A stretch of 64,000 bases of DNA from positions 25,858 to 89,857 of IMG/VR virus record IMGVR_UViG_3300032218_002851. One strand, written 5' to 3'. Under the pieces are notes generated by a model, which worked only from the letters and a program-made list of their open reading frames with translations, was not told the DNA's origin and did not search any database. Shown in pieces: positions 1-62,549 of this stretch. Position 1 is the stretch's first letter, and each line of letters opens with the position of its first letter. The translations under genes and the position numbers were made by a program. This stretch comes from a virus (lineage: Duplodnaviria; Caudoviricetes).

Positions 1-1
1 G

Positions 2-409
2 ATTATCGAGAATGCTGTAAATTCCACCGCTGACCGGGGGTGTTTCCACATCTTCCACATACAGTTCAGCTTCGTGGCCACGAATCTTGATATCGTGTTC
101 ATCGTTCCAGATTTTTTTCTTGGCAGTATAGAATGCTTCTGCTAGGTCGTCACATTGCAAATCACTGTAACGTGTGACTACATGAATATCAAAGTCTGAA
201 TAATCAGTGTAGTTATAGTTAGCCATGCTGCCAGTCAGCACAATATCCAATGTTTCAAAATCAGGAATATCCAGTGATTCACGAAATACAGTGGCAATCT
301 GCATGAGTTTTTTGCGAACTTCAGGTCGTAGTTTTTCGCCCTGCCATGCCAAAGGACAAAGTTTACTGTGGTATTCTACATTGCTTTTGGTGTAATCATC
401 AAGTCTCAT
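2..409 (-). CDS. Pol-beta-superfamily nucleotidyltransferase (3' end runs off the window)
   Basis: Not in ORF track; manual translation MRLDDYTKSNVEYHSKLCPLAWQGEKLRPEVRKKL...IVLTGSMANYNYTDYSDFDIHV...ELYVED, with the GS...DxD NTase motif; frame open to the window edge. Confidence 0.75.
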   Translation of the reverse strand, partial: MRLDDYTKSNVEYHSKLCPLAWQGEKLRPEVRKKLMQIATVFRESLDIPDFETLDIVLTGSMANYNYTDYSDFDIHVVTRYSDLQCDDLAEAFYTAKKKIWNDEHDIKIRGHEAELYVEDVETPPVSGGIYSILDN

Positions 410-791
410 TGCGTAAATCTTTTAGTAAATCAGGATGTGCATGATCGAAATGACGCATAACAATACCAGCCACCGAATTTGCTTCGTTTTCTTGAGGACT
501 GCCAGTGTGACCAGCTTTTGGACCAAGTTCGCCGCGCAATTCTTGTCGCCAATGTACCAATTCATGTGCTAGAGTGCGAAGTACATCAATCACATGGCGA
601 TTGCCTGCTACAACTCTGATATTACCATCATGATACTTGCCGAAAGTTCCGTCTAGGCCAGTGTCTAGAAAAATAATTTTAGGCAGTTCTTTTATTCCCA
701 GTCTTTTTTGGGCAAAAGGTATAAATCTCACAAGAATTTTTTCTAATTTGGGGTGGCTTACACCTTCGATGCTGAAATCATTTGCTCTCAT
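399..791 (-). CDS. zincin-like metallopeptidase (HExxH)
   Basis: RTLAHELVHWRQ motif plus downstream ENEAN glutamate; TAAATA motif at 799-804. Confidence 0.7.
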   Translation of the reverse strand: MRANDFSIEGVSHPKLEKILVRFIPFAQKRLGIKELPKIIFLDTGLDGTFGKYHDGNIRVVAGNRHVIDVLRTLAHELVHWRQELRGELGPKAGHTGSPQENEANSVAGIVMRHFDHAHPDLLKDLRNET

Positions 792-801
792 AATGATATA
801 T

Positions 802-2679
802 TTAGTTTCGCTTACGCATTATATCAATTGCTTTGGCTGTTCGTTTGGTCATTTGTTCACGATCAATAAAATCTGTTATATCCATTGTTCGCAAGTCATA
901 GTCTGTTTGTTTTAGATTGTTGTCGTTAATAAATATTAATGCCTCAATGCGAGCCTCAGGCCAAATTGTACCGGGAAAATACGCAACAGCTTGCGTTGGG
1001 TTTGTCTTTTTAACTAATTTATATCCCTCTGATGCTTTTCCAGCAGTTTTTTCTCTGACCACTTCACTTGCCCAAAGCTTTTTAAATGTGCTGATGTTTA
1101 TTTTTTTAGAAAAGTATTGGCTGATCAGCGTGGACATATAGTTAGAAGGCACATCTGGCTGCAAAATTTTATACAGCTTTTTTGCATATTCTTCTTGGGC
1201 AGCATTTGGATCATTGGCAATTGTCATGGCTTTGGCAACTCTTAGTAACACAAAATTCAGTTTTTCTACATCATCAAAGTAGTTTGGAGCAGCACTAGCA
1301 GTGGGCTGGCCGTCTTTGGCTGCATCATACGCATGACCCACGCTGCGTATTTCTACATAGTCCTTTCGTGGATTAATACTGAAGTATTTGCCAAAATCAA
1401 ACTGTATCAAAGCTTGTTGTATACTTTGGTAATACCCATCGCGCAATGCTGAAATAGCCTGGTTTATGTTTTCAGTATTTTGAGATGCGAGTTTCTCAAC
1501 AAATGATTGTGTAAAGTTATTGCTTAGTCGTCTAAAAAGAGAGAGTATTTGTTTGTCGCCGAGAAATACAGCGAATTTCACCAAGTCTATATTCATCACA
1601 GGCAAGCTGACGTTTATGTGAAATCCTGTGCTGGGATTGCTTTTGCCGCCGCATTCTTTCACCCAATCAAAAAATTTAGGTAATATAGCAAGACAACTTT
1701 GCAGTGACATAGGTGGAGAAACAATCTCACACGGCAGTTCATTTGGCGCATAATCCTTGATACTGGAATCTGGTTCTATTATCCATGTATCTTTGATTCT
1801 TGGTATGCCGTGATAAGCACTACTGAAATCTACTTTTACACCTAGATATTCGCGCAAAGAATCAGCTATTGTGGCAGCATTGGCGTTGGAAAAACCTAAT
1901 GCAGAGTCAAGATTGCCACTCAGAGTTAAATATGGCCAAGGTAGATCTAATATATTGGCTGCACTCTTCATATCCACAATTCTTTTTGTCTCTAAAAAAT
2001 GCGTTAAAAATTCGGGTGCATCATACCGTTCATAATAGGATTCTGTAAATTTTTTCTTTACTCTTTGATATAATTCATTTTTCGTAGAAATAGCATCTTC
2101 AATTACATTTTCTAGTTCAACCAATGCATCCCGGCGTGCTTGAAGATATCTGTTAGCCAAGTCGTTTTGTTCAACATTTAGATTGTCGCTGCCATCGTTC
2201 TTCCAATTCTGATAAGATTGGTGCGCAAGTTTAATTTGTTTATCACTGAGCCCTTGAGATTTTAGTAGGTCGTGGGTTGTCTTTTCTCGTAATCCGTTGT
2301 TTCTAAGAACCTCGTCAAACACTTTTCGATATTCATGAAAGGCAAAATCTGATTCTATTTTATCCACGAACCAAGATTTATATAACAGCTTTAACGCATC
2401 GACTTTTTTTTGTACCAGTGAGCGTGGCGTGCGGACAGAACCGGTGGCTGATGAGAAAAAATCAATGATCTTATTCCAGCTTACGCCAGCCTCTGGATTT
2501 AATAATTTATTTTTAGAATAGTCTGGACTTTCTTTTTTTTGTAATCCGGTTTGAGTTAATATCAACTCTGCTTCAAATCCAACTTTAATACCTTCTGTTG
2601 CCTTGCCCTGAGCAAATTTTTCCAAAGTCTTTGGCGTAATTTTGATTTCACTCAGAGGTTTGATTTCACCATATCTCAT
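802..2679 (-). CDS. putative amidoligase (COOH-NH2 ligase, glutamine-synthetase fold), paralog 1
   Basis: Motifs GFEAEL, IEPDSSI, EIVSPP, STGFHINVS, KYFSIN, YVEIRS. Confidence 0.75.
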   Translation of the reverse strand: MRYGEIKPLSEIKITPKTLEKFAQGKATEGIKVGFEAELILTQTGLQKKESPDYSKNKLLNPEAGVSWNKIIDFFSSATGSVRTPRSLVQKKVDALKLLYKSWFVDKIESDFAFHEYRKVFDEVLRNNGLREKTTHDLLKSQGLSDKQIKLAHQSYQNWKNDGSDNLNVEQNDLANRYLQARRDALVELENVIEDAISTKNELYQRVKKKFTESYYERYDAPEFLTHFLETKRIVDMKSAANILDLPWPYLTLSGNLDSALGFSNANAATIADSLREYLGVKVDFSSAYHGIPRIKDTWIIEPDSSIKDYAPNELPCEIVSPPMSLQSCLAILPKFFDWVKECGGKSNPSTGFHINVSLPVMNIDLVKFAVFLGDKQILSLFRRLSNNFTQSFVEKLASQNTENINQAISALRDGYYQSIQQALIQFDFGKYFSINPRKDYVEIRSVGHAYDAAKDGQPTASAAPNYFDDVEKLNFVLLRVAKAMTIANDPNAAQEEYAKKLYKILQPDVPSNYMSTLISQYFSKKINISTFKKLWASEVVREKTAGKASEGYKLVKKTNPTQAVAYFPGTIWPEARIEALIFINDNNLKQTDYDLRTMDITDFIDREQMTKRTAKAIDIMRKRN

Positions 2680-4880
2680 CGGATTTGCCTGATATCCAGA
2701 TCATCGAATGTCATGTTAGCAAACATATCTGCTGGATAAGGTTTTTTGATTGCTGCTTGCCAAGCATCGTGTTCATTAGCAGCATCTACTTCTAGATAAC
2801 GAGTATCGTGATTAGTTCCTGCATAGCGTTTGAATCCCACCATATAGCGTTTTAGTTTGGTGGATGATTTTGGTTCGTCAGTCTTTTTTGAACTGCTGAT
2901 TTTTTGGGCTAGTAGTTGGCGCTGAGTAGCAAGATCACTGATTTCACTGCCTTCTGCCTTGTTGATTTCATAACCATATTTTAAAAAGTCTCGTAGTGAT
3001 CCATTGCCGTATTTGTTGAATGCTGCTCGCAATGCCTCCCACCCAATCATATCAGGTAAAAACATCACCTGCTCTTGATTTATATCAGATATAACCCAAT
3101 CATGTTTTTTAAAGTCTGATGTATCTTGTTGTTCTTTGGGCTTGACAGATGCAAGTACCTTGTCGGCCCATTCTTTTTTAAGAGTGTTTGAATTGATCAA
3201 CCCTACCATGTATTTGCAGAATAATCCAATGATATCATCCATTTCGGTTGGATCTACTGAAACTCTGGATCCTTTGGTTCTTACATCAGAAGAAGCAAAT
3301 TTTGTCTGATGATATTTCGTAAAGCCTTTTGCGGTAGACTCAGGATCAGTGTCTTTTGGATTCCAATATTTCAGAATGGTCGGTGATAATACTTTATACA
3401 ACTTCTTGAAGTATTCATTTCGTTCTGCTTCAGGATTTGCAGCAATATACATTGCCTGAGCATAGCGCATTAAAGTGTTTTTCAATTTGTCAATATCATC
3501 AAAATAATCTTTTCCGCCGGCGCTGCGAAATTCTACATAATTTGCTTTAGGATTAATACTGAAATATTTGCCAAATCCTTGGCCGCCAGCGGAACTCTGA
3601 TGTATCATAAAATGTGATGCATCGGTTATTCCCTTGCGCAAATCTTCAAATGCACGTATCAGCATTGCTGTGTCTCTGGCTGCATTGGCCGGGCTATGAT
3701 TGGACCTTATATTTTTGATTGTGGTTTTTATTCTTTTTAAAAAACTTTCTGCATATGTACTATTTTGTCTTTTAAACTGCTTTAGCACATATTCATCACC
3801 CAGAAATAATGCTAATTTAACGGTATCAAGATTTGCAGTAGTCTGACTAGACAAGCTGACACCCATGTGAAATCCTGTGCTTTTGTTTGAATAAGCATTA
3901 TTATCTTTTGCCCATGCAAAAAATTCAGGCAACCAATACTCTACTACTTCTTTCAACGGCTTGGGTGGACTTATAATTTCAATCGGTAAATCTCTCATAT
4001 CATCAACGATAATACTGCTATCTGCTTCAAATACCCAGTTATTCCCGTCTCTTGTGGCAGTATGATAGCCTGAACTGACTTTAACGGTTTCCTCACGGAA
4101 TGTGCGTCTAAAATCATCTGCCAAGTCTCTAGCAGAAGCTTCAACATATTCGCCCTGTTCATCACCGACGGCTATAAAAGGCCATTCAAGATCGTATGCA
4201 TTAGCTACTTCCATCATTGAATCATATGTCTGTTGTACCCAGTAATCTTCATCGAGATCAAACTCGTCGGTAAATTCATCTCTTGCTTGACTCCAGTATA
4301 CTCCTTGGGATCTTATCTCATCTTCTACTTTTTCTTCAAACTCTGCGTTAGCAGCGTCATATGCTTCATCATAAGTTTCTCGGTCCACGCTGTCACCACG
4401 CCGTAAGATGCGTTCAACATCTTCTTCTGAATATTTGTTGCGTAGTTTATCAGCAACTTCGATTTCTTCGTCCCATGATTCTTGGCGCATTAGTTCAGTA
4501 ACTAGTTCAAGTTCAGATTCTGCAAACGATTCATCAATTTGTTTATCAACCCAGACACGATATTCCTCTCGCATTTCATATTCTAATCTTTGTCTGCCAG
4601 TCCGCGCTAATCCAAGATTAAAATCATCATTTGAGAAGAAACGTAGTACGTCCGGGATGCTGACTGGTCTTTCATCCATTTCATAATCTGGCTCCCCTTG
4701 TATGTTTGAATCTTGCACACCCATTCCTTCAAATACCAATTCAGCTTCAAAGCCAGCCATCATGCCTTCAGCAGCAGGACTGTTCATGAACTTGGTAAGC
4801 GCGGTAGGATCCATGCGTACTTCATCTAAAATTTGCTCAGATTCTTTTTTTGGTGCTAACTTGAAGTCTTTAAATTTCAT
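2676..4880 (-). CDS. putative amidoligase, paralog 2, with a large acidic insertion
   Basis: Motifs GFEAEL, FEADSSI, EIISPP, STGFHMGVS, KYFSIN, YVEFRS; ATGA overlap with paralog 1. Confidence 0.75.
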   Translation of the reverse strand: MKFKDFKLAPKKESEQILDEVRMDPTALTKFMNSPAAEGMMAGFEAELVFEGMGVQDSNIQGEPDYEMDERPVSIPDVLRFFSNDDFNLGLARTGRQRLEYEMREEYRVWVDKQIDESFAESELELVTELMRQESWDEEIEVADKLRNKYSEEDVERILRRGDSVDRETYDEAYDAANAEFEEKVEDEIRSQGVYWSQARDEFTDEFDLDEDYWVQQTYDSMMEVANAYDLEWPFIAVGDEQGEYVEASARDLADDFRRTFREETVKVSSGYHTATRDGNNWVFEADSSIIVDDMRDLPIEIISPPKPLKEVVEYWLPEFFAWAKDNNAYSNKSTGFHMGVSLSSQTTANLDTVKLALFLGDEYVLKQFKRQNSTYAESFLKRIKTTIKNIRSNHSPANAARDTAMLIRAFEDLRKGITDASHFMIHQSSAGGQGFGKYFSINPKANYVEFRSAGGKDYFDDIDKLKNTLMRYAQAMYIAANPEAERNEYFKKLYKVLSPTILKYWNPKDTDPESTAKGFTKYHQTKFASSDVRTKGSRVSVDPTEMDDIIGLFCKYMVGLINSNTLKKEWADKVLASVKPKEQQDTSDFKKHDWVISDINQEQVMFLPDMIGWEALRAAFNKYGNGSLRDFLKYGYEINKAEGSEISDLATQRQLLAQKISSSKKTDEPKSSTKLKRYMVGFKRYAGTNHDTRYLEVDAANEHDAWQAAIKKPYPADMFANMTFDDLDIRQIR

Positions 4881-25591: not shown

Positions 25592-26598
25592 CGACGCCTC
25601 CATACTGCAAAAAATACTAACAACAGTCCCATAACTAGCATGGCTAGTATTTCTGCACCATCTGCCCAATCAGGACGTTTTATATTAGATCCTGCGATCA
25701 TGGTAGAAATCACAGCAGCTTGTAAATCCTGTGGCCATACACTACCTACTGCTGTTGGAACTGGATTGGATATGCCAGCCGCACTAACGCCTACAATTAC
25801 AACTGCACCTTCAAAGTTTTCTAATAAGTCAACTGCTGATACAGATTGAGCACGCTGACTCCAGTCGATCCATACACGCCCTAAGTTGTCAGTAGCTATT
25901 GGACCAAACTTAGGTATACGCATTTTTTCCACGCCAAGTGCATTTAGTTTAACTTGGAAGGTAGTATCGCCGGCAGCAGCACGTAGAGCTTCCATTGCTA
26001 ATGAAGGATATAGTTTCTTATCTACGGTGGCAATCAATGGTGCTCTACGAACAACGCCATCAACTTCTGGTAATGTATTAACGGTTCCTACACCGTATGC
26101 TCGATCTTCTAATAAGGATACATTAGATATGAGTCCTGGATATTCTATTATGCGATCAAGAAACTCTGGCCCCATCACTGCGCTACCCGGCACATGCGCT
26201 TTGTTTTTGCTTTTTTCTGCGGGCATGTTAGCAAGCACCACTGGATTTTCATCTAGTACAGCAGCTAACGCTTTATCGCCGCCTTGACGATCTGTTTCAG
26301 GCATCATAACGTCCCATACTACTAATCCAGCTTTTCGGGCGTAGAGATCGCTGATTAGATCGGCGTATATTTCTCGATTAAAAGGCCACTGTCCATATTT
26401 GTCCAGTGTTGCTTCGTCTATGTTGATTGTGAATATATTTGTTGGTTTAGAGGGTTCACTGGTTATCAATGTGTCAAAATAACGCAGTCTTACTGATTCA
26501 ACAAAGTTTGGATCTGCGATTCTAACTGATAATACTATGCCTAGTGTTGCTAGTGCTAGCCAAGGACTTACTAAAATTTTCAATAGTATTTTTTTCAT
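25588..26598 (-). CDS. CHASE2 periplasmic sensor protein (cyclase domain encoded separately)
   Basis: INIDEATLDKYGQWPFNR, EVDGVVRRAPL, LYPSLAMEALR, GRVWIDW, PTAVG motifs; TM helices at both ends. Confidence 0.88.
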   Translation of the reverse strand: MKKILLKILVSPWLALATLGIVLSVRIADPNFVESVRLRYFDTLITSEPSKPTNIFTINIDEATLDKYGQWPFNREIYADLISDLYARKAGLVVWDVMMPETDRQGGDKALAAVLDENPVVLANMPAEKSKNKAHVPGSAVMGPEFLDRIIEYPGLISNVSLLEDRAYGVGTVNTLPEVDGVVRRAPLIATVDKKLYPSLAMEALRAAAGDTTFQVKLNALGVEKMRIPKFGPIATDNLGRVWIDWSQRAQSVSAVDLLENFEGAVVIVGVSAAGISNPVPTAVGSVWPQDLQAAVISTMIAGSNIKRPDWADGAEILAMLVMGLLLVFFAVWRRR

Positions 26599-32445: not shown

Positions 32446-32889
32446 TCACTTGGTATAAGTGATAGCGATCTTACGAGGTTTCTTCTCGTCGGGAAGCACA
32501 TGTTCTACAGCAATCGAGAGGATACCATTTTTTACCACTGCGCCACGAACTTCATGGTCTGGACCAAGAGTAAAGACTCGTTCCCAATCTCGTGCACTAA
32601 TGCCACGATGTAGATACTCAGCAGCAGAGTCTGGCTCAGCTTTTTTTCCAGTTACCGTCAATCGCTGATCATTCAAAGACACATCCAATTCGTTTTCAGC
32701 AAATCCTGCAACTGCTACTTCCACAAGGAAATGAGTCTCGTCTAGTTTACTGATGTTATACGGAGGATATGTGCCAGCATTTCGGCTATTAGAAAATGTA
32801 CGATTAATTTCATCAAACACTCGATCAAAGCCGATTACATGACGGTGAAGAGTAGGTAGGTCTAGGGTTTTAAATTCAAATTGTGTCAT
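32446..32889 (-). CDS. hsp20: small heat shock protein Hsp20 (IbpA-like)
   Basis: IGFDRVFD, YPPYNI, VEVAVAGF, EYLHRGISARDW, NGILSI. Confidence 0.92.
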   Translation of the reverse strand: MTQFEFKTLDLPTLHRHVIGFDRVFDEINRTFSNSRNAGTYPPYNISKLDETHFLVEVAVAGFAENELDVSLNDQRLTVTGKKAEPDSAAEYLHRGISARDWERVFTLGPDHEVRGAVVKNGILSIAVEHVLPDEKKPRKIAITYTK

Positions 32890-33523: not shown

Positions 33524-35221
33524 TTAAAATTCTGTGTTTTTATTTATTGATTGAATGTTTTGTAGTTCAAGTTCATTGAGGTCATCTAGACTATATTCAC
33601 CTGAGCTAATCTTTTCTGCTAAAAAATTGATGTACTGCTCATTATAACTATACGCATCAGTACTGTTCTTGTTGACTTCAATCCATTTTACACTATTCCA
33701 TTTGAATAGTCTGCTAGGCTTAAAGTCTACTCGCATACACATGTCGCCACGCTTTGGATTAGCTGGAAATACTAGTCCAAAATCTACGCTTGGTTTTTCC
33801 AAGGGCAAAATGACAGTGGGTTCTGCAAGTGGTTCAACTATCGACATAGATTCAACTACTGATTCAGGTTCGATCTGCATCTCAGAATTGTTAACCCGAT
33901 TTGACTGTAACTCTAGTTCAATAGCCAATGAATCTGCTCGAACCATTTCGTGACTGTGCGCAGCAAATAATAAATCTCGTTCTTCCAATAAGCGTGAGTT
34001 TTCAAGTAAAAGATTTTTAACCTGTTCTGCTAGATTGTCTGAACGTGCTGCATACCAAACCTCAGTATCAACTTCTAAGCGAGTTTCTACGAGTTGCTCT
34101 TCAAGTTTATCTATCTTTTCTTGTAGCTTTAGATTACGACTCAGGGAAATATTGTGTTGTTCTTCCAATTGCTGGTAATCATTTCCAAGACTGGATAAAA
34201 TATTTTCAGTTGCTTCGATTTTTTCACGCTGTGCATCAAGCTCAGCTAATAATTCTAAATTATCTTGAATTGATTGATCAGTGTCTCCAGATTCTGATTC
34301 ATTTTGCTGCTCAGATTCAGATTGCTGTACAGGTTCAGATTTTATGTACATAGGGGGCACACCATATGCATTTCCATCTAGGCCAGCTAGATACAAATTA
34401 TTTGCATCATCATTTGATTTTTCTTCTGGAACGGTTAATATTGTATCAGATTTTTCTTTCTTTTCAGATTTAGTCAATTCGATTTGCTTGATACCGGCCA
34501 AGATCAAAATGATAGCCAGTGGATCAAATACAATAACAATTAAGATAATAACCCAACGTACTGCATGTTCTAGTACGTTAGTGTCAGGATTGTCGCTGTA
34601 TATAAGTGCGGCAATATATTTAATTGGTCCAACATCAGCTTCTACTTTTCGTACCTCCGCTGCAAGTGGCGCACGTTCTTCGCTAAGGGCAGAAATAGTT
34701 TTCTGTTCAGCCGCAAGCTCGGATTGAAGGCGGACACGTTCTTTTTGCTGTCCTCTACGTATAGCAATGGCTTTGTCAGCACCTTTTTCATCACTGCTTC
34801 GACCCATAACTTGGTCCACAGCTTCATCCATCTGTTTAAGCGCCCGACGATTTGCATCAATATTAGCCTTTGAGATTTTAATCTTTTCGTCGAATATGGC
34901 GACCCGAGCCATTGCGTCTCCTGACACAAGACTCTGATCACCGTGTGCTTTGCTTAGGAAACCAAAGATACCCATACTAGTCAGTAGCATGAGAAATACA
35001 ATAGCAGGAACTAGGTACAGTTTGAATGCTACTCCCGCTCGCTTCCAGTTGTTATGGAGCCAAACAGTTGCAACGATCTTGCCTGCTTCCAGTGCGCCTC
35101 CCATGATCATCACGGGGATCACAGCGGCTGCAAAAATGGCAGCAAGCCCGGCGATTGAGTACCAGGCCGCGATAGACGAAATGATTACTGCAATGATTAG
35201 TATTAGATATCCAAATAGCAT
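33524..35221 (-). CDS. multi-TM membrane protein with long coiled coil
   Basis: Three N-terminal TM helices, coiled coil, a further TM (VIVFDPLA), acidic region, C-terminal FPANPKRGD...FKWNSVKWIEV domain. Confidence 0.75.
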   Translation of the reverse strand: MLFGYLILIIAVIISSIAAWYSIAGLAAIFAAAVIPVMIMGGALEAGKIVATVWLHNNWKRAGVAFKLYLVPAIVFLMLLTSMGIFGFLSKAHGDQSLVSGDAMARVAIFDEKIKISKANIDANRRALKQMDEAVDQVMGRSSDEKGADKAIAIRRGQQKERVRLQSELAAEQKTISALSEERAPLAAEVRKVEADVGPIKYIAALIYSDNPDTNVLEHAVRWVIILIVIVFDPLAIILILAGIKQIELTKSEKKEKSDTILTVPEEKSNDDANNLYLAGLDGNAYGVPPMYIKSEPVQQSESEQQNESESGDTDQSIQDNLELLAELDAQREKIEATENILSSLGNDYQQLEEQHNISLSRNLKLQEKIDKLEEQLVETRLEVDTEVWYAARSDNLAEQVKNLLLENSRLLEERDLLFAAHSHEMVRADSLAIELELQSNRVNNSEMQIEPESVVESMSIVEPLAEPTVILPLEKPSVDFGLVFPANPKRGDMCMRVDFKPSRLFKWNSVKWIEVNKNSTDAYSYNEQYINFLAEKISSGEYSLDDLNELELQNIQSINKNTEF

Positions 35222-35288: not shown

Positions 35289-35546
35289 TTAAGCTTCTTC
35301 AAGATAGTATCCGCAGCCGGGATATACTTGTCTTTGTAGGTTTTCCACTGTGGGGTAAATTTTACAACCGCTGAATCTGGTTTCGTATATCTTGCATTTC
35401 AATGCAACCGTATCCAGATATTCGCAGGGTTCTACTGTGTAGTTGCCTTGTGAATCAAATACTCGAACTTGGCAACATCCAGCACCACATCGACCGGAAT
35501 CACAAGAGCCTTGGACCACAGGGTTGATCCAAATGACTTCCATCAC
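35289..35546 (-). CDS. YkgJ-like Cys-cluster (CxxxCxxCC-type) protein
   Basis: CDSGRCGAGCC...CEYLD...CKIYETRFSGCKIYP. Confidence 0.65.
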   Translation of the reverse strand: MMEVIWINPVVQGSCDSGRCGAGCCQVRVFDSQGNYTVEPCEYLDTVALKCKIYETRFSGCKIYPTVENLQRQVYPGCGYYLEEA

Positions 35547-37765
35547 ACAAAGGCAAAGTAGTTGATGTCCAGTGTGACACTAACGGCGCCGCCACTGTTG
35601 TTGGCATATTCAATGCTGACTGTGTTTAGGGCACTGGCCCAGGCCGCTGTTATGCTGAACTGGCGATCAGGCGTTACAGTACCAGAGGATATGATGATCT
35701 TGTGACTGGTAGTCAATCCGGTTATGGTGTATGTCACTGTGGCTACGGAGTTTTTAGGAACGCTGCCAGTGGCTGCAGACAGTTTTCCTGCCAGGAATGT
35801 TCCTATCGCTGTTGTACCTGCTGTGGCCAACTGTGTGGCTTTACCAACAACATTACCATAATGTGCTGTGGCAATAACATTGCCTGCTGTGATATTACCG
35901 GTGGTATTGATTGTGGCAGTGGTTAGGTATGCGGCTGTGTTGGCATTGGCGCCTGTGGACAAACTGTTGATAGCTGTGTTGGCCGCTGTGATGTTAGCAC
36001 GGAGTGCAGAAATGTATGTGTCTGTTTCGATGCCCAGTAGTGTACCAGCAATGGTAGTAAATGTACCTTTGGTACCTGATACATTGCCTGTGGTAACATT
36101 GCCTGTGACTGCTAGACTGGTTAGCGTACCAACGCTTGTGATATTGGTCTGTGCGCTTGCTGTAACTGTGGCGGCTGTGACTGCTGATGTTGCCTGTCCA
36201 CTCAGTGCGGCTGTGATCACGTTGGCTGAGAAGTTGCCTGACGCATCACGACTCACAATAGCACCGGCTGTGTACGCACTGGTAGCATCTGTTGAAATAG
36301 TGATGGCACCAGTGGGCTGGTTAACTGATAGGTGTGTGCCAGCAGTTAGGCTGGTGAACAGGCCAAATGGTGGTACATAACTCCAAACAGAGCCGTTGTA
36401 TATAACAAAGCCGCCTTGTGCATAGGCCTGACTACCGGCGCCTAGGTTTTGTGTGCCAGCCACGCTGATAGAATATTCCCAACCTGCTGTGCCTGATCCA
36501 TTGGCCAACTCAGGAGTATTGGTGCTGGCATCCCAGGCACCTTTGTAGAGCACTCCTCCGATCAGGCTTGGTGGAATCTGTGCGGCTGTCAAGTAACCAT
36601 TGCTGTCCAGGGTGGCCACACCCAGGCTGTTGCCTTTTTGTGTGAGTGGAATACCTGCTGTGGTCTGTGTTGTGTCATCAGTGACAAATGTAATAGCGTT
36701 GGCAGAGATGCCAGTAGTAGTAATACTGGCCACTTGTTGACTCACATTACTGCCTATGGGTGTAGTCCAGAAGTTGATCTTTGAACCTTTGGCTGAGTCT
36801 GTGAAGTTTTCAACAGCCACTGATTCTATGCGTGTGCCGCCTGTACCCCATGTTGTTGCACCAAATCCATTTGAACTCAAACGACTTAGAATGTCATTTT
36901 GTTTTATTGCAGCAGGTGCAGCCACTGTGCCACGGGCCGCATAACTGCCCCATACTGCATAACTGTTGTTGCCGCCAATGCTGTCAGTAGCACCATAGGC
37001 TCTCTGAATTACACGACTGTTTTTGTTAGGACGACCTACGGTCTGCATCACAGTGTCGGGTAAGATGGTCACAGGATCTGCTCCACCTGACGCATTCATG
37101 CTGACCATGGGTTCAGTTGGACTATATGTGGTATTGTCAAACTGTGCTTTACGCTTGATATAGAAAAATCCTGTGTCGTCGATAGCGCCAATTGAGATGT
37201 CGAGATTGTTGGTAGCACTGGTCAAGGTGGTGTCAACAATCACCAGGTTGCCCACTGCCAGGTTCTGTGCGCCGTTTAGATACAGTGTACCGTTGTTAAC
37301 AGTAAACGCAACATCAGCTCCGGTGGTTTCATCCTGCATGTGTAGACTGGCACGGCCAATCCATATATCACCCCAGCGATGACTACTGTTACCAATGCTT
37401 AGATTGCCATTGGTATATGCTGGCACCAGGTTATTAACCAAGCTGCTTGGCAGGTAAGGAACTGTTTGCGGATCAGGATAATCGCTGCCGTCAAAATAGA
37501 TACCACCGTCGCCTAGATGAATATGATTCCAGCGCAGTGCACCAGTGCCAATGCCATAGATGTTGTCTGTCCCTGGAACCAGCGTGTCTGTAATAATGTT
37601 AACCGCTTCGATGCCAATTGGTTGTCCGCCGGGTGTAACGCCATCACTTAATCGTAATACACCGGTGGCTTCGTCGTAGAAAAGTCGACCCTTCTCACCT
37701 ATGTAGGTGTTACGGACGCCATTGATTCTAGTGCTCCAAACTTTTTGTAACTTAGCCACTGGCAA
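35543..37765 (-). CDS. tail fibre / virion adhesin-like protein
   Basis: N-terminal GEKGRLFYD...LRLSDGVTPGG module typical of phage fibres; T/A/G/N-rich beta repeats. Confidence 0.7.
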   Translation of the reverse strand: MPVAKLQKVWSTRINGVRNTYIGEKGRLFYDEATGVLRLSDGVTPGGQPIGIEAVNIITDTLVPGTDNIYGIGTGALRWNHIHLGDGGIYFDGSDYPDPQTVPYLPSSLVNNLVPAYTNGNLSIGNSSHRWGDIWIGRASLHMQDETTGADVAFTVNNGTLYLNGAQNLAVGNLVIVDTTLTSATNNLDISIGAIDDTGFFYIKRKAQFDNTTYSPTEPMVSMNASGGADPVTILPDTVMQTVGRPNKNSRVIQRAYGATDSIGGNNSYAVWGSYAARGTVAAPAAIKQNDILSRLSSNGFGATTWGTGGTRIESVAVENFTDSAKGSKINFWTTPIGSNVSQQVASITTTGISANAITFVTDDTTQTTAGIPLTQKGNSLGVATLDSNGYLTAAQIPPSLIGGVLYKGAWDASTNTPELANGSGTAGWEYSISVAGTQNLGAGSQAYAQGGFVIYNGSVWSYVPPFGLFTSLTAGTHLSVNQPTGAITISTDATSAYTAGAIVSRDASGNFSANVITAALSGQATSAVTAATVTASAQTNITSVGTLTSLAVTGNVTTGNVSGTKGTFTTIAGTLLGIETDTYISALRANITAANTAINSLSTGANANTAAYLTTATINTTGNITAGNVIATAHYGNVVGKATQLATAGTTAIGTFLAGKLSAATGSVPKNSVATVTYTITGLTTSHKIIISSGTVTPDRQFSITAAWASALNTVSIEYANNSGGAVSVTLDINYFAFV

Positions 37766-37768
37766 TCC

Positions 37769-38116
37769 TTAAACGATGTCGTTTTCTTCGCCGCCGATAT
37801 CCTGTATGATTACAGGAAGTCCGGCGTTTTGTTTGATAATATCTAATTCGTCGGGTTCGCACTCACAAGGATCGCAGCCGCAGTGTTCGCAGGATGCGTG
37901 TTCGTTATCATAGTAACTGTCAACCCCAGCAGCCTTCTTTAACAATTCGTGCTTTTGTTGTAGCGGAGCAATCATCACTGTGGTATCAGTGTGATCTTCG
38001 TGATCTGCTGACATAGGTGTTAGTTTTGCTTGATTTGGACTAGCGTGTGATTGTCTGCCCATTTCTGCTTTGGCTACTATATCCGACAAGTTTCTTAGAA
38101 TTTCTGAGGCTTTCAT
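37769..38116 (-). CDS. hypothetical protein with CxxCxCxxCxC cluster
   Basis: MKASEIL N-terminal motif; CEHCGCDPCEC; AGGA RBS. Confidence 0.7.
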   Translation of the reverse strand: MKASEILRNLSDIVAKAEMGRQSHASPNQAKLTPMSADHEDHTDTTVMIAPLQQKHELLKKAAGVDSYYDNEHASCEHCGCDPCECEPDELDIIKQNAGLPVIIQDIGGEENDIV

Positions 38117-38142
38117 ATTTTATCCTGTTTGTATATTTATTA

Positions 38143-38562
38143 CTATGGCAGTTTCCATGGGCGACCAACAACCAGTTTTACACCAGGATTGTCTACTATG
38201 GTATCTCCAGAATATTTTGTAGGTAGATCGTTGATGGTTAAAGTATGCCTTTTTCCGGACTCTGCGCGATCCAGTCCAGCTAGTGCTAATTTGGCTTCTT
38301 GACGTAGTTGACGAGTAGCAAGTCTAGCAATCTTGTTGTGTATCCTTAGCTTTGAACCTTCCACTATACCATAGGAGCCAATTGTTTGTGCTGTGTCCAA
38401 CACATGACCATTGAACACTAGGTCAAACCAAGTTGCCGAATATGAAAAATTGGTTTCCATAGCAGTTTTTAAATCGCCAATTGTACCTGCGGTGTCCACT
38501 GTTTGTAGATCATAAACTGCTGTGTTTAGTAGGCTTTGAACTGTGATGTTTATTGTGGCCAT
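38143..38562 (-). CDS. ubiquitin-like (beta-grasp) domain protein
   Basis: TIGDLK...LVFNGHVLDTAQTIGSYGIVEGSKLRI aligns by eye with ubiquitin TIENVK...[27 protein letters not shown]; no terminal GG. Confidence 0.6.
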   Translation of the reverse strand: MATINITVQSLLNTAVYDLQTVDTAGTIGDLKTAMETNFSYSATWFDLVFNGHVLDTAQTIGSYGIVEGSKLRIHNKIARLATRQLRQEAKLALAGLDRAESGKRHTLTINDLPTKYSGDTIVDNPGVKLVVGRPWKLP

Positions 38563-38669
38563 TATCGCATTCCTGCTTGGAACCTTGGATACATGCTCAG
38601 AGCAGTAAATTCATTTTCTGCACTGTCAATCAAATTCAATACACCGTGTATAATATCAGACACTTTCAT
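38562..38669 (-). CDS. 35-aa hypothetical peptide
   Basis: MKVSDIIHGVLNLIDSAENEFTALSMYPRFQAGMR; late motif at 38687; TAATG coupling to the Ubl gene. Confidence 0.5.
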   Translation of the reverse strand: MKVSDIIHGVLNLIDSAENEFTALSMYPRFQAGMR

Positions 38670-38716
38670 TGCTAATCTCTTTTAGGTATTTATCAGATTT
38701 CCTGGATTCAAGACAA

Positions 38717-38741
38717 AGAAAAACCCGCATTGCGCGGGTTT
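38717..38741 (-). terminator. intrinsic terminator
   Basis: AAACCCGC / GCGGGTTT stem with T tract on the minus strand. Confidence 0.75.
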
Positions 38742-39945: not shown

Positions 39946-40629
39946 CTACAGCTTCCCACGATAGAACACATTATGACCAGGAGAATTGATCTTGGTCATT
40001 TTCTTAGACCAGTTAGATCGAATTTTCTTATGATGAAAATACATGACATTAGCGTATTTGATTTTGTAAACATCATATCGATCGTCTCCAGCCAATAATT
40101 CATGCGCGATACGTACACTATCACTCCATTGCTTGCCTTTATAGTTTGGTGAATGCATTTTCATACAATTCCAACTGAACTGACATGTACCCTGAACTCG
40201 TTGACGTACTACCGCACATACAGTTTTAGGAAATTTCCAATCTGCCATTCTATTCAATGTGACTAGACCTACTGCAATTTTTCCCTCAGTAGGTTCATGC
40301 CCAGCTTCATAATAAATGTTGTGTGCCAAACAATCTATTTCTCGTTTATCTGGTTTCTCATTCTCGATAGGATCGTTATATCCTTGAGGCCTGGGCCAAA
40401 TATCTGTTTTGTTTAGCGTGTTAGATAATACAAATTGTTCATTGTAAAAATTGTTAATTATCCTTGATAATTGCTCATCTTCGGAAACCTTTCTTAATAT
40501 CTTCGATTCTTTCCAATCTAAAAAAGAAATCGTTGAGTTGTCTGTCTCAGCGTGACCGAGTTGTGTTGCCACTGTTACGGTCAGGGCGACTGTGACAATG
40601 ATTTGATGTAGTCTCTTCATTGTTCGCAT
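39946..40629 (-). CDS. cell wall hydrolase, SleB/Hydrolase_2 family
   Basis: CLAHNIYYEAGHE..GKIAVGLVTLNR, FPKTVCAVV.Q, CQFSW, HNVFY; GGAGG RBS before ATG 40629. Confidence 0.88.
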   Translation of the reverse strand: MRTMKRLHQIIVTVALTVTVATQLGHAETDNSTISFLDWKESKILRKVSEDEQLSRIINNFYNEQFVLSNTLNKTDIWPRPQGYNDPIENEKPDKREIDCLAHNIYYEAGHEPTEGKIAVGLVTLNRMADWKFPKTVCAVVRQRVQGTCQFSWNCMKMHSPNYKGKQWSDSVRIAHELLAGDDRYDVYKIKYANVMYFHHKKIRSNWSKKMTKINSPGHNVFYRGKL

Positions 40630-40791
40630 GGTTCGTCCTCCTATTGCGATCGTGGACAATATGTCCACTACGGACTTTTTACGGTCCGTCTAGTATATAC
40701 CAACAGAAATCAATAGATAACGGCTGTTATAACTTATTATATAGTGTTATTATGACAAAATATCAGAAAAAATAAAGATAAACGGCGTTGT

Positions 40792-62515: not shown

Positions 62516-62549
62516 TTTTGGTTTCCTCTATATAAAGTTATTTATCTGA

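Follow-up and report, generated by a model that had tools for sequence, protein, structure and literature searches.

A ubiquitin-family domain and a novel C-terminal module in a protein encoded beside tail-fibre-like genes of a large uncultured phage

A ubiquitin-family domain at the N-terminus of a phage protein

The DNA analysed here comes from a large, uncultured, freshwater-type tailed phage (Duplodnaviria; Caudoviricetes). It comprises 64,000 nucleotides (nt), positions 25,858 to 89,857 of IMG/VR record IMGVR_UViG_3300032218_002851, and is called the window below; the genome to which it belongs is about 25% complete. On the minus strand of the window lies a gene for a protein of 139 amino acids (aa) made of two parts, a ubiquitin-like (Ubl) domain and a C-terminal module of about 65 residues that we call the handle. 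The gene and its two parts are as follows.

38143-38562, minus strand: Ubl-handle gene, an ATG-to-stop open reading frame (ORF) of 139 aa, from the ORF list with its translation
38335..38562, minus strand: ubiquitin-family domain, residues 1-76, from Pfam, phmmer, the family alignment, AlphaFold2, Foldseek and a profile against the PDB
38146..38334, minus strand: handle module, residues 77-139 (the module proper running from about N76 to W136), from the family alignment, profile searches and its separate fold

A preliminary description of this gene, made from the sequence alone, had proposed that residues 1-75 follow the ubiquitin pattern, that they lie closer to ubiquitin and its UBL relatives than to ThiS/MoaD, and that they have no di-Gly. 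The Pfam search agrees with the first two points: residues 6-75 match PF00240 (ubiquitin) with an E value of 1.2e-7 and a score of 31.9 bits, which exceeds the gathering cut-off (25.4); the lesser matches of the 139-aa protein are Rad60-SLD, DUF2604 and Ubiquitin_4, and ThiS/MoaD is unlisted even at E <= 10. PF00240 is also matched, at E <= 1e-3, by 23 of the 81 relatives that carry a C-terminal extension (described below), the best of them reaching 1.8e-14. When a profile of the phage family was compared with all PDB sequences, the matches at E <= 0.01 were ubiquitin chains exclusively, with no bacterial Ubl among them; the weak PDB sequence matches of the 139-aa protein itself include an eL40 fusion chain. 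In the phmmer alignment, residues 22-74 of the query pair without gaps with residues 17-69 of ubiquitin.

The AlphaFold2 model of the 139-aa protein, built with 33 homologues, has a mean predicted local distance difference test (pLDDT) of 85.7 and a predicted TM-score of 0.74, with pLDDT above 90 across residues 1-80. The model begins with a beta-grasp (residues 1-76), followed by a helix (84-102) and a small hairpin (116-123), and its end is disordered. Foldseek against the PDB returned, as the best 50 matches, only ubiquitin, ISG15, NEDD8, SUMO or UBL domains, the UBL of Dsk2 among them, and the model superposes on the ubiquitin/ISG15-type folds with a root-mean-square deviation of 1.1-1.4 A over about 76 columns (target TM about 0.9, identity 20-25%). 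By sequence and by fold the domain is a genuine member of the ubiquitin family: the predicted fold is the beta-grasp that the preliminary description had expected, the similarity to ubiquitin is significant, and every point of that description that could be tested was correct.

The C-terminal end of the domain differs from that of ubiquitin. The site of ubiquitin's LRLRGG (residues 71-76) is occupied by N76-K77-I78-A79-R80-L81, with no di-Gly; N76, K77 and I78 are invariant or nearly so, and the chain then passes straight into the helix. A GG is found in most relatives about 50 residues past the di-Gly site of ubiquitin, and this protein does not have it. With no terminal Gly-Gly at the end of the beta-grasp, the domain is predicted to be non-conjugatable. 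The residue at the position of ubiquitin I44 is V49, invariant across the family, and that at the position of K48 is H53, which is variable. In our reading of sequence and model, the loop between beta1 and beta2 (the site of L8 in ubiquitin) is longer here, and it is near-invariant among the homologues (Q9 S10 L11. N13).

The C-terminal part occurs in several domain architectures

Behind the Ubl, the preliminary description had pointed to a 60-aa tail with LPTKY...DNP...GRPW, and this tail is indeed present and strongly conserved. It consists of a helix (NKIxRLATRQLRQEAKLALAxLDR), an LPTxY motif, a small hairpin and a GRPW end motif, and in the 33 homologues residues L113, Y117, R134, P135 and W136 are invariant. 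The start of the handle coincides exactly with the position of ubiquitin's own C-terminal tail, and the near-invariant GRPW is its end. The same module is also found alone, as a protein of 68 aa, in other phages.

A word-indexed search returned at least 228 proteins of about 138 aa with 59-91% identity and 98-100% coverage, named hypothetical or not named at all apart from two evidently misapplied labels; some of their contigs are 200-380 kb long. A profile search of 1.84 billion representative proteins gave 790 matches, in which eukaryote-type polyubiquitins match just the Ubl part. Using separate hidden Markov models for the Ubl and the tail, we sorted the architectures in the 150 best representatives at 50% identity, of which the following were recorded.

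40 of the 150 best: handle at residues 2-3 followed by a C-terminal extension, no Ubl
35 of the 150 best: Ubl, handle and a C-terminal extension
29 of the 150 best: Ubl and handle only, as in the window
11 of the 150 best: handle only (68-106 aa)

The extensions behind GRPW are mostly beta-sandwiches of carbohydrate-binding or adhesin type. Among the 81 extended members, Laminin_G_3 (LamG) was found in 29, PA14/GLEYA in 14 and ILEI in 7, together with two cases of a sialidase N-terminal domain and single cases of Calx-beta and SPRY. Two homologues (P0022 and P0113) have an acidic repeat (...IGNADAFILLENGDTLIAENNDNLITE) past GRPW and no lectin domain there. The residues behind GRPW are not conserved: they are Lys-Leu-Pro in this protein, Ser in many relatives and whole domains elsewhere.

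Modelled alone, the handle gives a helix and a hairpin with a pLDDT of 78.7. The fold search with this model reached a best VIA-align Z of 2.8 and, with Foldseek, nothing at E <= 0.001, which is not proof of a new fold; a search of the ESM Atlas with the tail gave no usable match. In a tree of 107 handle modules, 54 with a Ubl and 50 without, the Ubl trait is clustered and needs at least four changes. Because it occurs alone, behind a Ubl or before lectin-type domains, the tail is an independent and wider-spread module, with the Ubl as an optional N-terminal accessory. This is the main structural point, and the preliminary description overlooked it.

The handle occupies a conserved slot in related phages

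The genomic context was drawn from 77 IMG/VR loci and several long metagenome contigs, with the neighbouring genes clustered. In the slot, the handle protein stands between an acidic protein of about 100 aa, encoded before it, and a large structural protein, encoded after it. The acidic protein precedes the handle gene in 48 loci and is recognised by its N-terminus (MKxTEIIRxLLDLID), an LxxIAGL motif and a C-terminal motif (KxPADIR..SMYPxFQ); neither Pfam nor PHROGs has a family for it. Some of its members (the upstream genes of loci L036, L048, L053, L058 and L068) bear a CGCxxxCxCPxC insert, and the next gene upstream belongs, in many loci, to a paralogous family of about 90 aa with an LKKLAGI-type motif.

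In 52 loci the large structural protein is encoded next to the handle gene, as a rule 0-40 nt away. It is mostly of the phrog_1645 type and opens with NSTxYxHPxExNLLNLHKAMEY; over its remainder it shares about 50% identity with the protein annotated as "virion structural protein" in more than 100 T4-like cyanophage genomes, and its closest cultured relatives are T4-like cyanophages. In cyanophage S-CAM9, the small ORF upstream of the virion structural protein has no visible similarity to the handle. Tail-only and tail-plus-LamG proteins fill the same slot between the same neighbours, and what stays constant in the slot is the handle. It is present in a single copy in each of five large records, two of which are complete according to CheckV (357-360 kb). 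The related loci also encode a Terminase_6-type TerL and a RecA/UvsX-like protein, and contain a faint gp32 match. PHROGs holds no family for the Ubl protein or for its 115-aa and 112-aa neighbours, and megablast with 20 kb of the window gave no match. Among sequencing runs, four DNA holders were listed, all of one study and one of them possibly the source sample, and no RNA holder.

In one lineage terL comes next, either directly or after the structural protein, and this raises the idea of a packaging accessory resembling a small terminase, with the basic helix of the handle binding DNA or TerL. The helix is rich in R, K and Q, and terL directly follows the handle gene in several loci (L019, L021 with the loci of identical layout, and L085). 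Yet terL is not adjacent in the window's own lineage, a structural protein of 450-860 aa stands between the handle gene and terL in most loci, fusions to LamG, PA14 and ILEI would be unexpected for a small terminase, and no small-terminase family is matched in Pfam or PHROGs. We consider a packaging role highly improbable, and the small-terminase idea was set aside on account of the lectin fusions and the position of terL in the window's lineage.

Two further features of the related loci were recorded. In the most distant Ubl-handle group (45% identity), locus L078:2921-5977 (plus strand) encodes upstream a fibre-like protein of 1019 aa, which has sub-threshold Pfam matches to E1 FCCH (24.8 bits against a cut-off of 29.5), probably a chance one if curious beside a Ubl gene, and to the Peptidase_G2 intramolecular-chaperone domain. 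Genes for a ribosomal protein S21 homologue, ClpS, HSP20 and HSP70 lie a few kb downstream of the cassette in relatives (L002:12818-13054, L091:11979-12224), and the window has an HSP20 gene at 32446-32889.

The operon of the window and its late-promoter-like motifs

The features around the Ubl-handle gene in the window are listed below in the direction of transcription, preceded by one gene of the conserved upstream region.

39946-40668, minus strand: SleB-type cell-wall hydrolase (PF07486) with an N-terminal extension that contains a hydrophobic stretch
38721..38741, minus strand: intrinsic-terminator-like hairpin AAACCCGCG-CAA-CGCGGGTTT followed by a T run, which closes the upstream transcription unit
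38687..38694, minus strand: GATAAATA, a T4-type late-promoter-like motif, 18 nt 5' of the first start codon of the operon
38562..38669, minus strand: unannotated ORF of 35 codons (MKVSDIIHGVLNLIDSAE...SMYPRFQAGMR); hmmsearch E 4e-7 against the profile of the neighbour family
38134..38141, minus strand: AATAAATA, a second late-promoter-like motif, 18 nt 5' of the 115-aa ORF
37769..38116, minus strand: acidic, Cys-rich ORF of 115 aa (CEHCGCDPCEC); likeness to the acidic family at E 2.5e-4, the best among the ORFs of the window
35543..37765, minus strand: tail-fibre-like protein of 740 aa, a variable cargo gene (phrog_31460 tail protein, phrog_13892 minor tail protein)
35289..35546, minus strand: Cys-rich ORF of 85 aa, the last of the variable cassette; no family found
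33524..35221, minus strand: protein of 565 aa with a hydrophobic N-terminus and coiled-coil stretches, the conserved downstream flank; 44% identical to a 569-aa protein of locus L091

The acidic protein that precedes the handle gene in other loci is represented here by the 35-codon ORF, an internally deleted version of it in which only the N-terminal helix and the SMYPxFQ end survive. Its stop codon, TAA, shares letters with the start codon of the Ubl gene (TAATG), and the two ORFs are translationally coupled. A complex prediction for the Ubl-handle protein with the 35-aa product scored 0.00; it was made without control runs and counts neither way. The 115-aa ORF resembles the acidic family in its N-terminal helix, AGL motif and Cys cluster, without the C-terminal motif. 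Further upstream, the synteny of the RNR genes, a gene for a PAAR-motif protein and the SleB-type hydrolase is kept in loci L002 and L091.

The preliminary description had called this a late gene. The T4 late-promoter consensus is TATAAATA, and because the motifs in the window resemble it, late expression of the Ubl-handle gene is plausible; the GATAAATA copy stands 18 nt before the first start codon of the operon. The coding strand has 20 copies of the core ATAAATA and the other strand has 4, and 14 of the 20 fall within the 8.8% of the window that is intergenic, an enrichment that could be inflated by the AT-rich composition of intergenic DNA. Copies of NATAAATA on the minus strand (for example at 62546, 58664, 52824, 51837, 38694, 38141, 32960, 31053, 22912, 11529 and 5739) mostly lie 2-128 nt before start codons. 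Their distribution is consistent with T4-type late promoters across the window, and the label of the preliminary description therefore remains a plausible one.

A putative swappable cassette downstream of the gene

The closest long relative is locus L091, whose Ubl-tail protein is 85% identical to that of the window. Both flanks are kept between the two: a 614-aa protein of L091 corresponds to one of 584 aa in the window, and one of 569 aa to the 565-aa protein. The content between the Ubl gene and the 565-aa flank differs. In the window (35289-38116) it consists of the 115-aa ORF, the 740-aa fibre and the 85-aa ORF, and the corresponding part of L091 (7421-9823) holds a phrog_1645-type protein and a LamG protein. 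BLASTP showed no relation between the 740-aa fibre and the protein encoded downstream in L002; with its counterpart in L005 the sole match was a low-complexity repeat (E 0.002). A search for phrog_1645 in the whole 89.9-kb record found no member, and the control genomes were likewise without matches. Because the flanks are kept in L091 while the genes after the Ubl gene differ, the Ubl-handle gene appears to stand at the fixed edge of a swappable fibre/adhesin cassette, and the difference looks like a host-range cassette swap behind a conserved adaptor.

This arrangement bears on the possibility that the protein is an assembly chaperone that does not enter the virion, binding transiently to the downstream fibre or structural protein for its folding or oligomerisation and then being left out of the particle, with the Ubl serving in cis as a solubility or folding helper, as ubiquitin does for eL40 and eS31. 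Such a role would suit a gene so closely linked to a large fibrous or structural one (the gaps are 0-40 nt), and would agree with the small size of the handle and the predicted disorder of its final residues. Ubiquitin acts as a chaperone in the ubiquitin-ribosomal protein fusions, and these are mirrored here by a ubiquitin fold with a short basic extension; the eL40 fusion is among the weak PDB matches, as mentioned. Known fibre chaperones (T4 gp38 and gp57A, Tfa of Mu, P2 and lambda), however, usually have their genes behind that of the fibre and are not known to be joined to lectins, the handle stays even where the downstream gene has been swapped, and the glycan-binding domains of more than 50 of the 81 extended members make sense on the surface of a particle. 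On balance we regard a purely transient chaperone as unlikely.

Conjugation enzymes and amidoligases in the related genomes

The preliminary description had offered three possible roles for the Ubl: a decoy for host E1/E2-like enzymes, a virion module, or a substrate for the phage's own amidoligases of the PafA fold. As for the first, neither PF00899 (ThiF-type E1) nor PF14464 (Prok-JAB) was found in the 89.9-kb record and four related records, two of them CheckV-complete, in searches for these two families, whose controls matched in 12 and 8 of 14 genomes. The two complete relatives thus hold no conjugation or deconjugation enzyme of the E1 and JAB families searched.

A decoy would be a non-conjugatable look-alike of ubiquitin that jams the E1, E2 or deubiquitinase (DUB) of a host Bil-type system, or Cap2/Cap3 of CBASS. 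The report on Bil (bioRxiv 10.1101/2023.09.04.556158) describes conjugation of its Ubl to the central tail fibre of phages, and the phage Ubl gene adjoins fibre genes; the equivalent of the Ile44 patch is conserved, with V49 invariant, and a Ubl without di-Gly could not itself be transferred. Against this, the Ubl is missing from about half of the orthologous proteins of the slot and its presence has changed at least four times in the tree of handles. It is invariably joined to the handle, and in many members to lectins as well, neither of which a soluble enzyme inhibitor would need; what it resembles is eukaryotic ubiquitin, and among PDB sequences at E <= 0.01 no bacterial Ubl came up. The late-promoter-like motif points to late expression, when an early gene would better suit an inhibitor of immunity. 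The decoy proposal found no specific support in these data, and we hold it to be decidedly unlikely. Improbable too, and by our estimate a long shot, is the related thought that the Ubl is displayed on the particle or on fibre-assembly intermediates and is used there against host Ubl-conjugation immunity; it would do so by occupying or mimicking the fibre site tagged by Bil, or by trapping E1, E2 or DUB.

The amidoligase proposal concerns a cluster at positions 1-4880 of the window that encodes COOH-NH2 ligases of PafA-like fold, of which the Ubl-handle protein would be the substrate or tag. Its sole support is the co-occurrence of the genes in this genome fragment; the 734-aa amidoligase-like protein has homologues in two of five related large records. 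The CheckV-complete relative G001 (359.6 kb) has the Ubl-handle gene and no homologue of the 734-aa protein, which weakens the proposal. The genes lie more than 30 kb apart, and because the residues after GRPW are not conserved, the family would offer no fixed C-terminal carboxylate for a PafA-like ligation. This leaves the protein hardly credible as an amidoligase substrate.

Comparison with known systems

The protein most resembles the eukaryotic integral-UBL proteins and the ubiquitin-extension fusions, here placed inside a phage structural cassette. Rad23, the Dsk2/ubiquilin proteins, Ub-eL40 and Ub-eS31 likewise have an N-terminal PF00240 domain of the same fold followed by a functional C-terminal part, and in Rad23 and Dsk2 that domain also has no cleavable di-Gly and stays attached. 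The differences are that the present protein belongs to a tailed phage of bacteria, with no E1 or JAB found in the complete relatives, that its C-terminal partner is a novel module of 65 aa instead of UBA domains or a ribosomal protein, and that it is just 20-25% identical to ubiquitin. The ribosomal fusions are cut after Gly-Gly, and the phage protein could not be cut in this way.

Among phages, the nearest precedent is TAPI (gpI of lambda), whose ubiquitin-like beta-grasp, encoded among tail-tip and fibre genes, is thought to act in tail assembly, according to Iyer, Burroughs and Aravind 2006 (PMC1779556). The two proteins are alike in their fold and in the setting of their genes. The neighbours of TAPI are a gpK-like protein with JAB and NlpC/P60 domains and a gpJ-type fibre, whereas here they are a small acidic protein and a phrog_1645-type or fibre protein; it belongs to lambda-like siphoviruses, and the present genome is of a large T4-like myovirus type; and the present Ubl scores as ubiquitin proper. 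Lambda_tail_I is not matched here (it is unlisted at E <= 10 in Pfam and there is no PHROG match, although HMMER filters can lose weak matches), and no Prok-JAB, as a gpK-like partner, was found in the related genomes.

The antiphage systems Bil, with an ISG15-like Ubl, and Bub also tie ubiquitin-like proteins to phage tail fibres, going by the preprint cited above. Their Ubls are host-encoded, end in Gly after processing and sit in operons with E1, E2 and DUB; the Ubl described here is phage-encoded and permanently fused, with no di-Gly and no E1 or JAB partner found. Neither does it look like another conjugatable modifier (Ub, NEDD8, SUMO, ISG15 or BilA-type), having no Gly-Gly and no E1 or JAB gene found, nor like a ThiS/MoaD sulfur carrier, with no model match, no di-Gly and no ThiF-family gene found.

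In the logic that we propose for it, the protein is akin to T5 pb10 and T4 Hoc, in which a small anchor domain carries displayed binding domains (Ig-like): a small conserved virion-binding module would bear variable, surface-exposed binding domains, and the gene is single-copy and dispensable-looking as theirs are. There is no similarity to them in sequence or fold, the anchor role would be the handle's by analogy, and the cargo is lectin-type or Ubl, not Ig-like. In the viral structure library BFVD, just two proteins of uncultured Caudovirales match over the whole length. The next-best matches are virus-borne ubiquitin-family domains of another setting, namely baculovirus v-ubi, the ubiquitin-domain proteins of giant viruses and the Ub inserts of pestiviruses; the hosts of these have a ubiquitin system, and the host here is a bacterium.

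Discussion

The context of the gene suggests that it encodes a late accessory protein associated with the virion or with fibre assembly, in which a non-conjugatable Ubl is joined to a novel docking handle. We judge the chances that this explanation is correct to be about even. The handle (residues 76-136, with the basic helix, the LPTxY hairpin and GRPW) would attach the protein to some component of the virion; the likeliest candidate is the structural or fibre protein of the next gene downstream, or the site where that protein attaches. The Ubl (residues 1-76) would be an integral UBL domain fused before the handle, not a conjugatable tag, and may offer a fixed surface for protein-protein interaction or for help in folding, by way of the equivalent of the Ile44 patch and the long beta1-beta2 loop. 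In sister phages the handle carries glycan-binding LamG, PA14/GLEYA and ILEI domains at its C-terminus, and would there make a small modular adhesin. According to PMC7824862, jumbo phages have concanavalin-fold lectin domains such as Laminin G3 and SPRY on tail fibres and on further parts of the virion. The virion module, one of the roles offered at the outset, fits the late-type operon with its tail-fibre-like gene, the virion structural neighbour in relatives and the fusions to adhesin domains.

Several observations weigh against this explanation. The handle has no detectable structural relative, and its docking role is read from architecture and context. The fibre downstream of the gene in the window belongs to a family other than that of most relatives, and a single specific partner is not obvious. 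Lectin-type domains are found in non-virion proteins too. About half of the family is without the Ubl, whose contribution would be inessential to the core function of the slot. Finally, tblastn with the whole protein and with the 68-aa tail-only member found no match in 50,697 GenBank phage records.

Beta-grasp or UBL accessory domains in the tail gene clusters of phages were already known; what is new is the handle module and the modular anatomy of the protein, and we found no description of the family or of the handle in the literature on phage ubiquitin and jumbo phages. The fold assignment is solid, and the function suggested above is drawn from context. Ubiquitin-fold domains of phage tail genes have been known since 2006 solely in the distant TAPI type, and the present family scores as ubiquitin proper. 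Large uncultured phages contain hundreds of its members, annotated as "hypothetical protein" where they are named at all. As the handle marks the head of a putatively swappable fibre/adhesin cassette, it may serve as a landmark for receptor-binding genes in uncultured T4-like and jumbo phages. If the Ubl acts only as a folding helper, the protein would be the counterpart, in a virus of prokaryotes, of the ubiquitin-ribosomal protein fusions. If the Ubl is carried on the virion or meets host defences that conjugate Ubls, the structure of these phages would be tied to the newly found ubiquitin-like immunity of bacteria, and an anti-defence Ubl built into the virion would be the first phage-encoded ubiquitin mimic of that sort.

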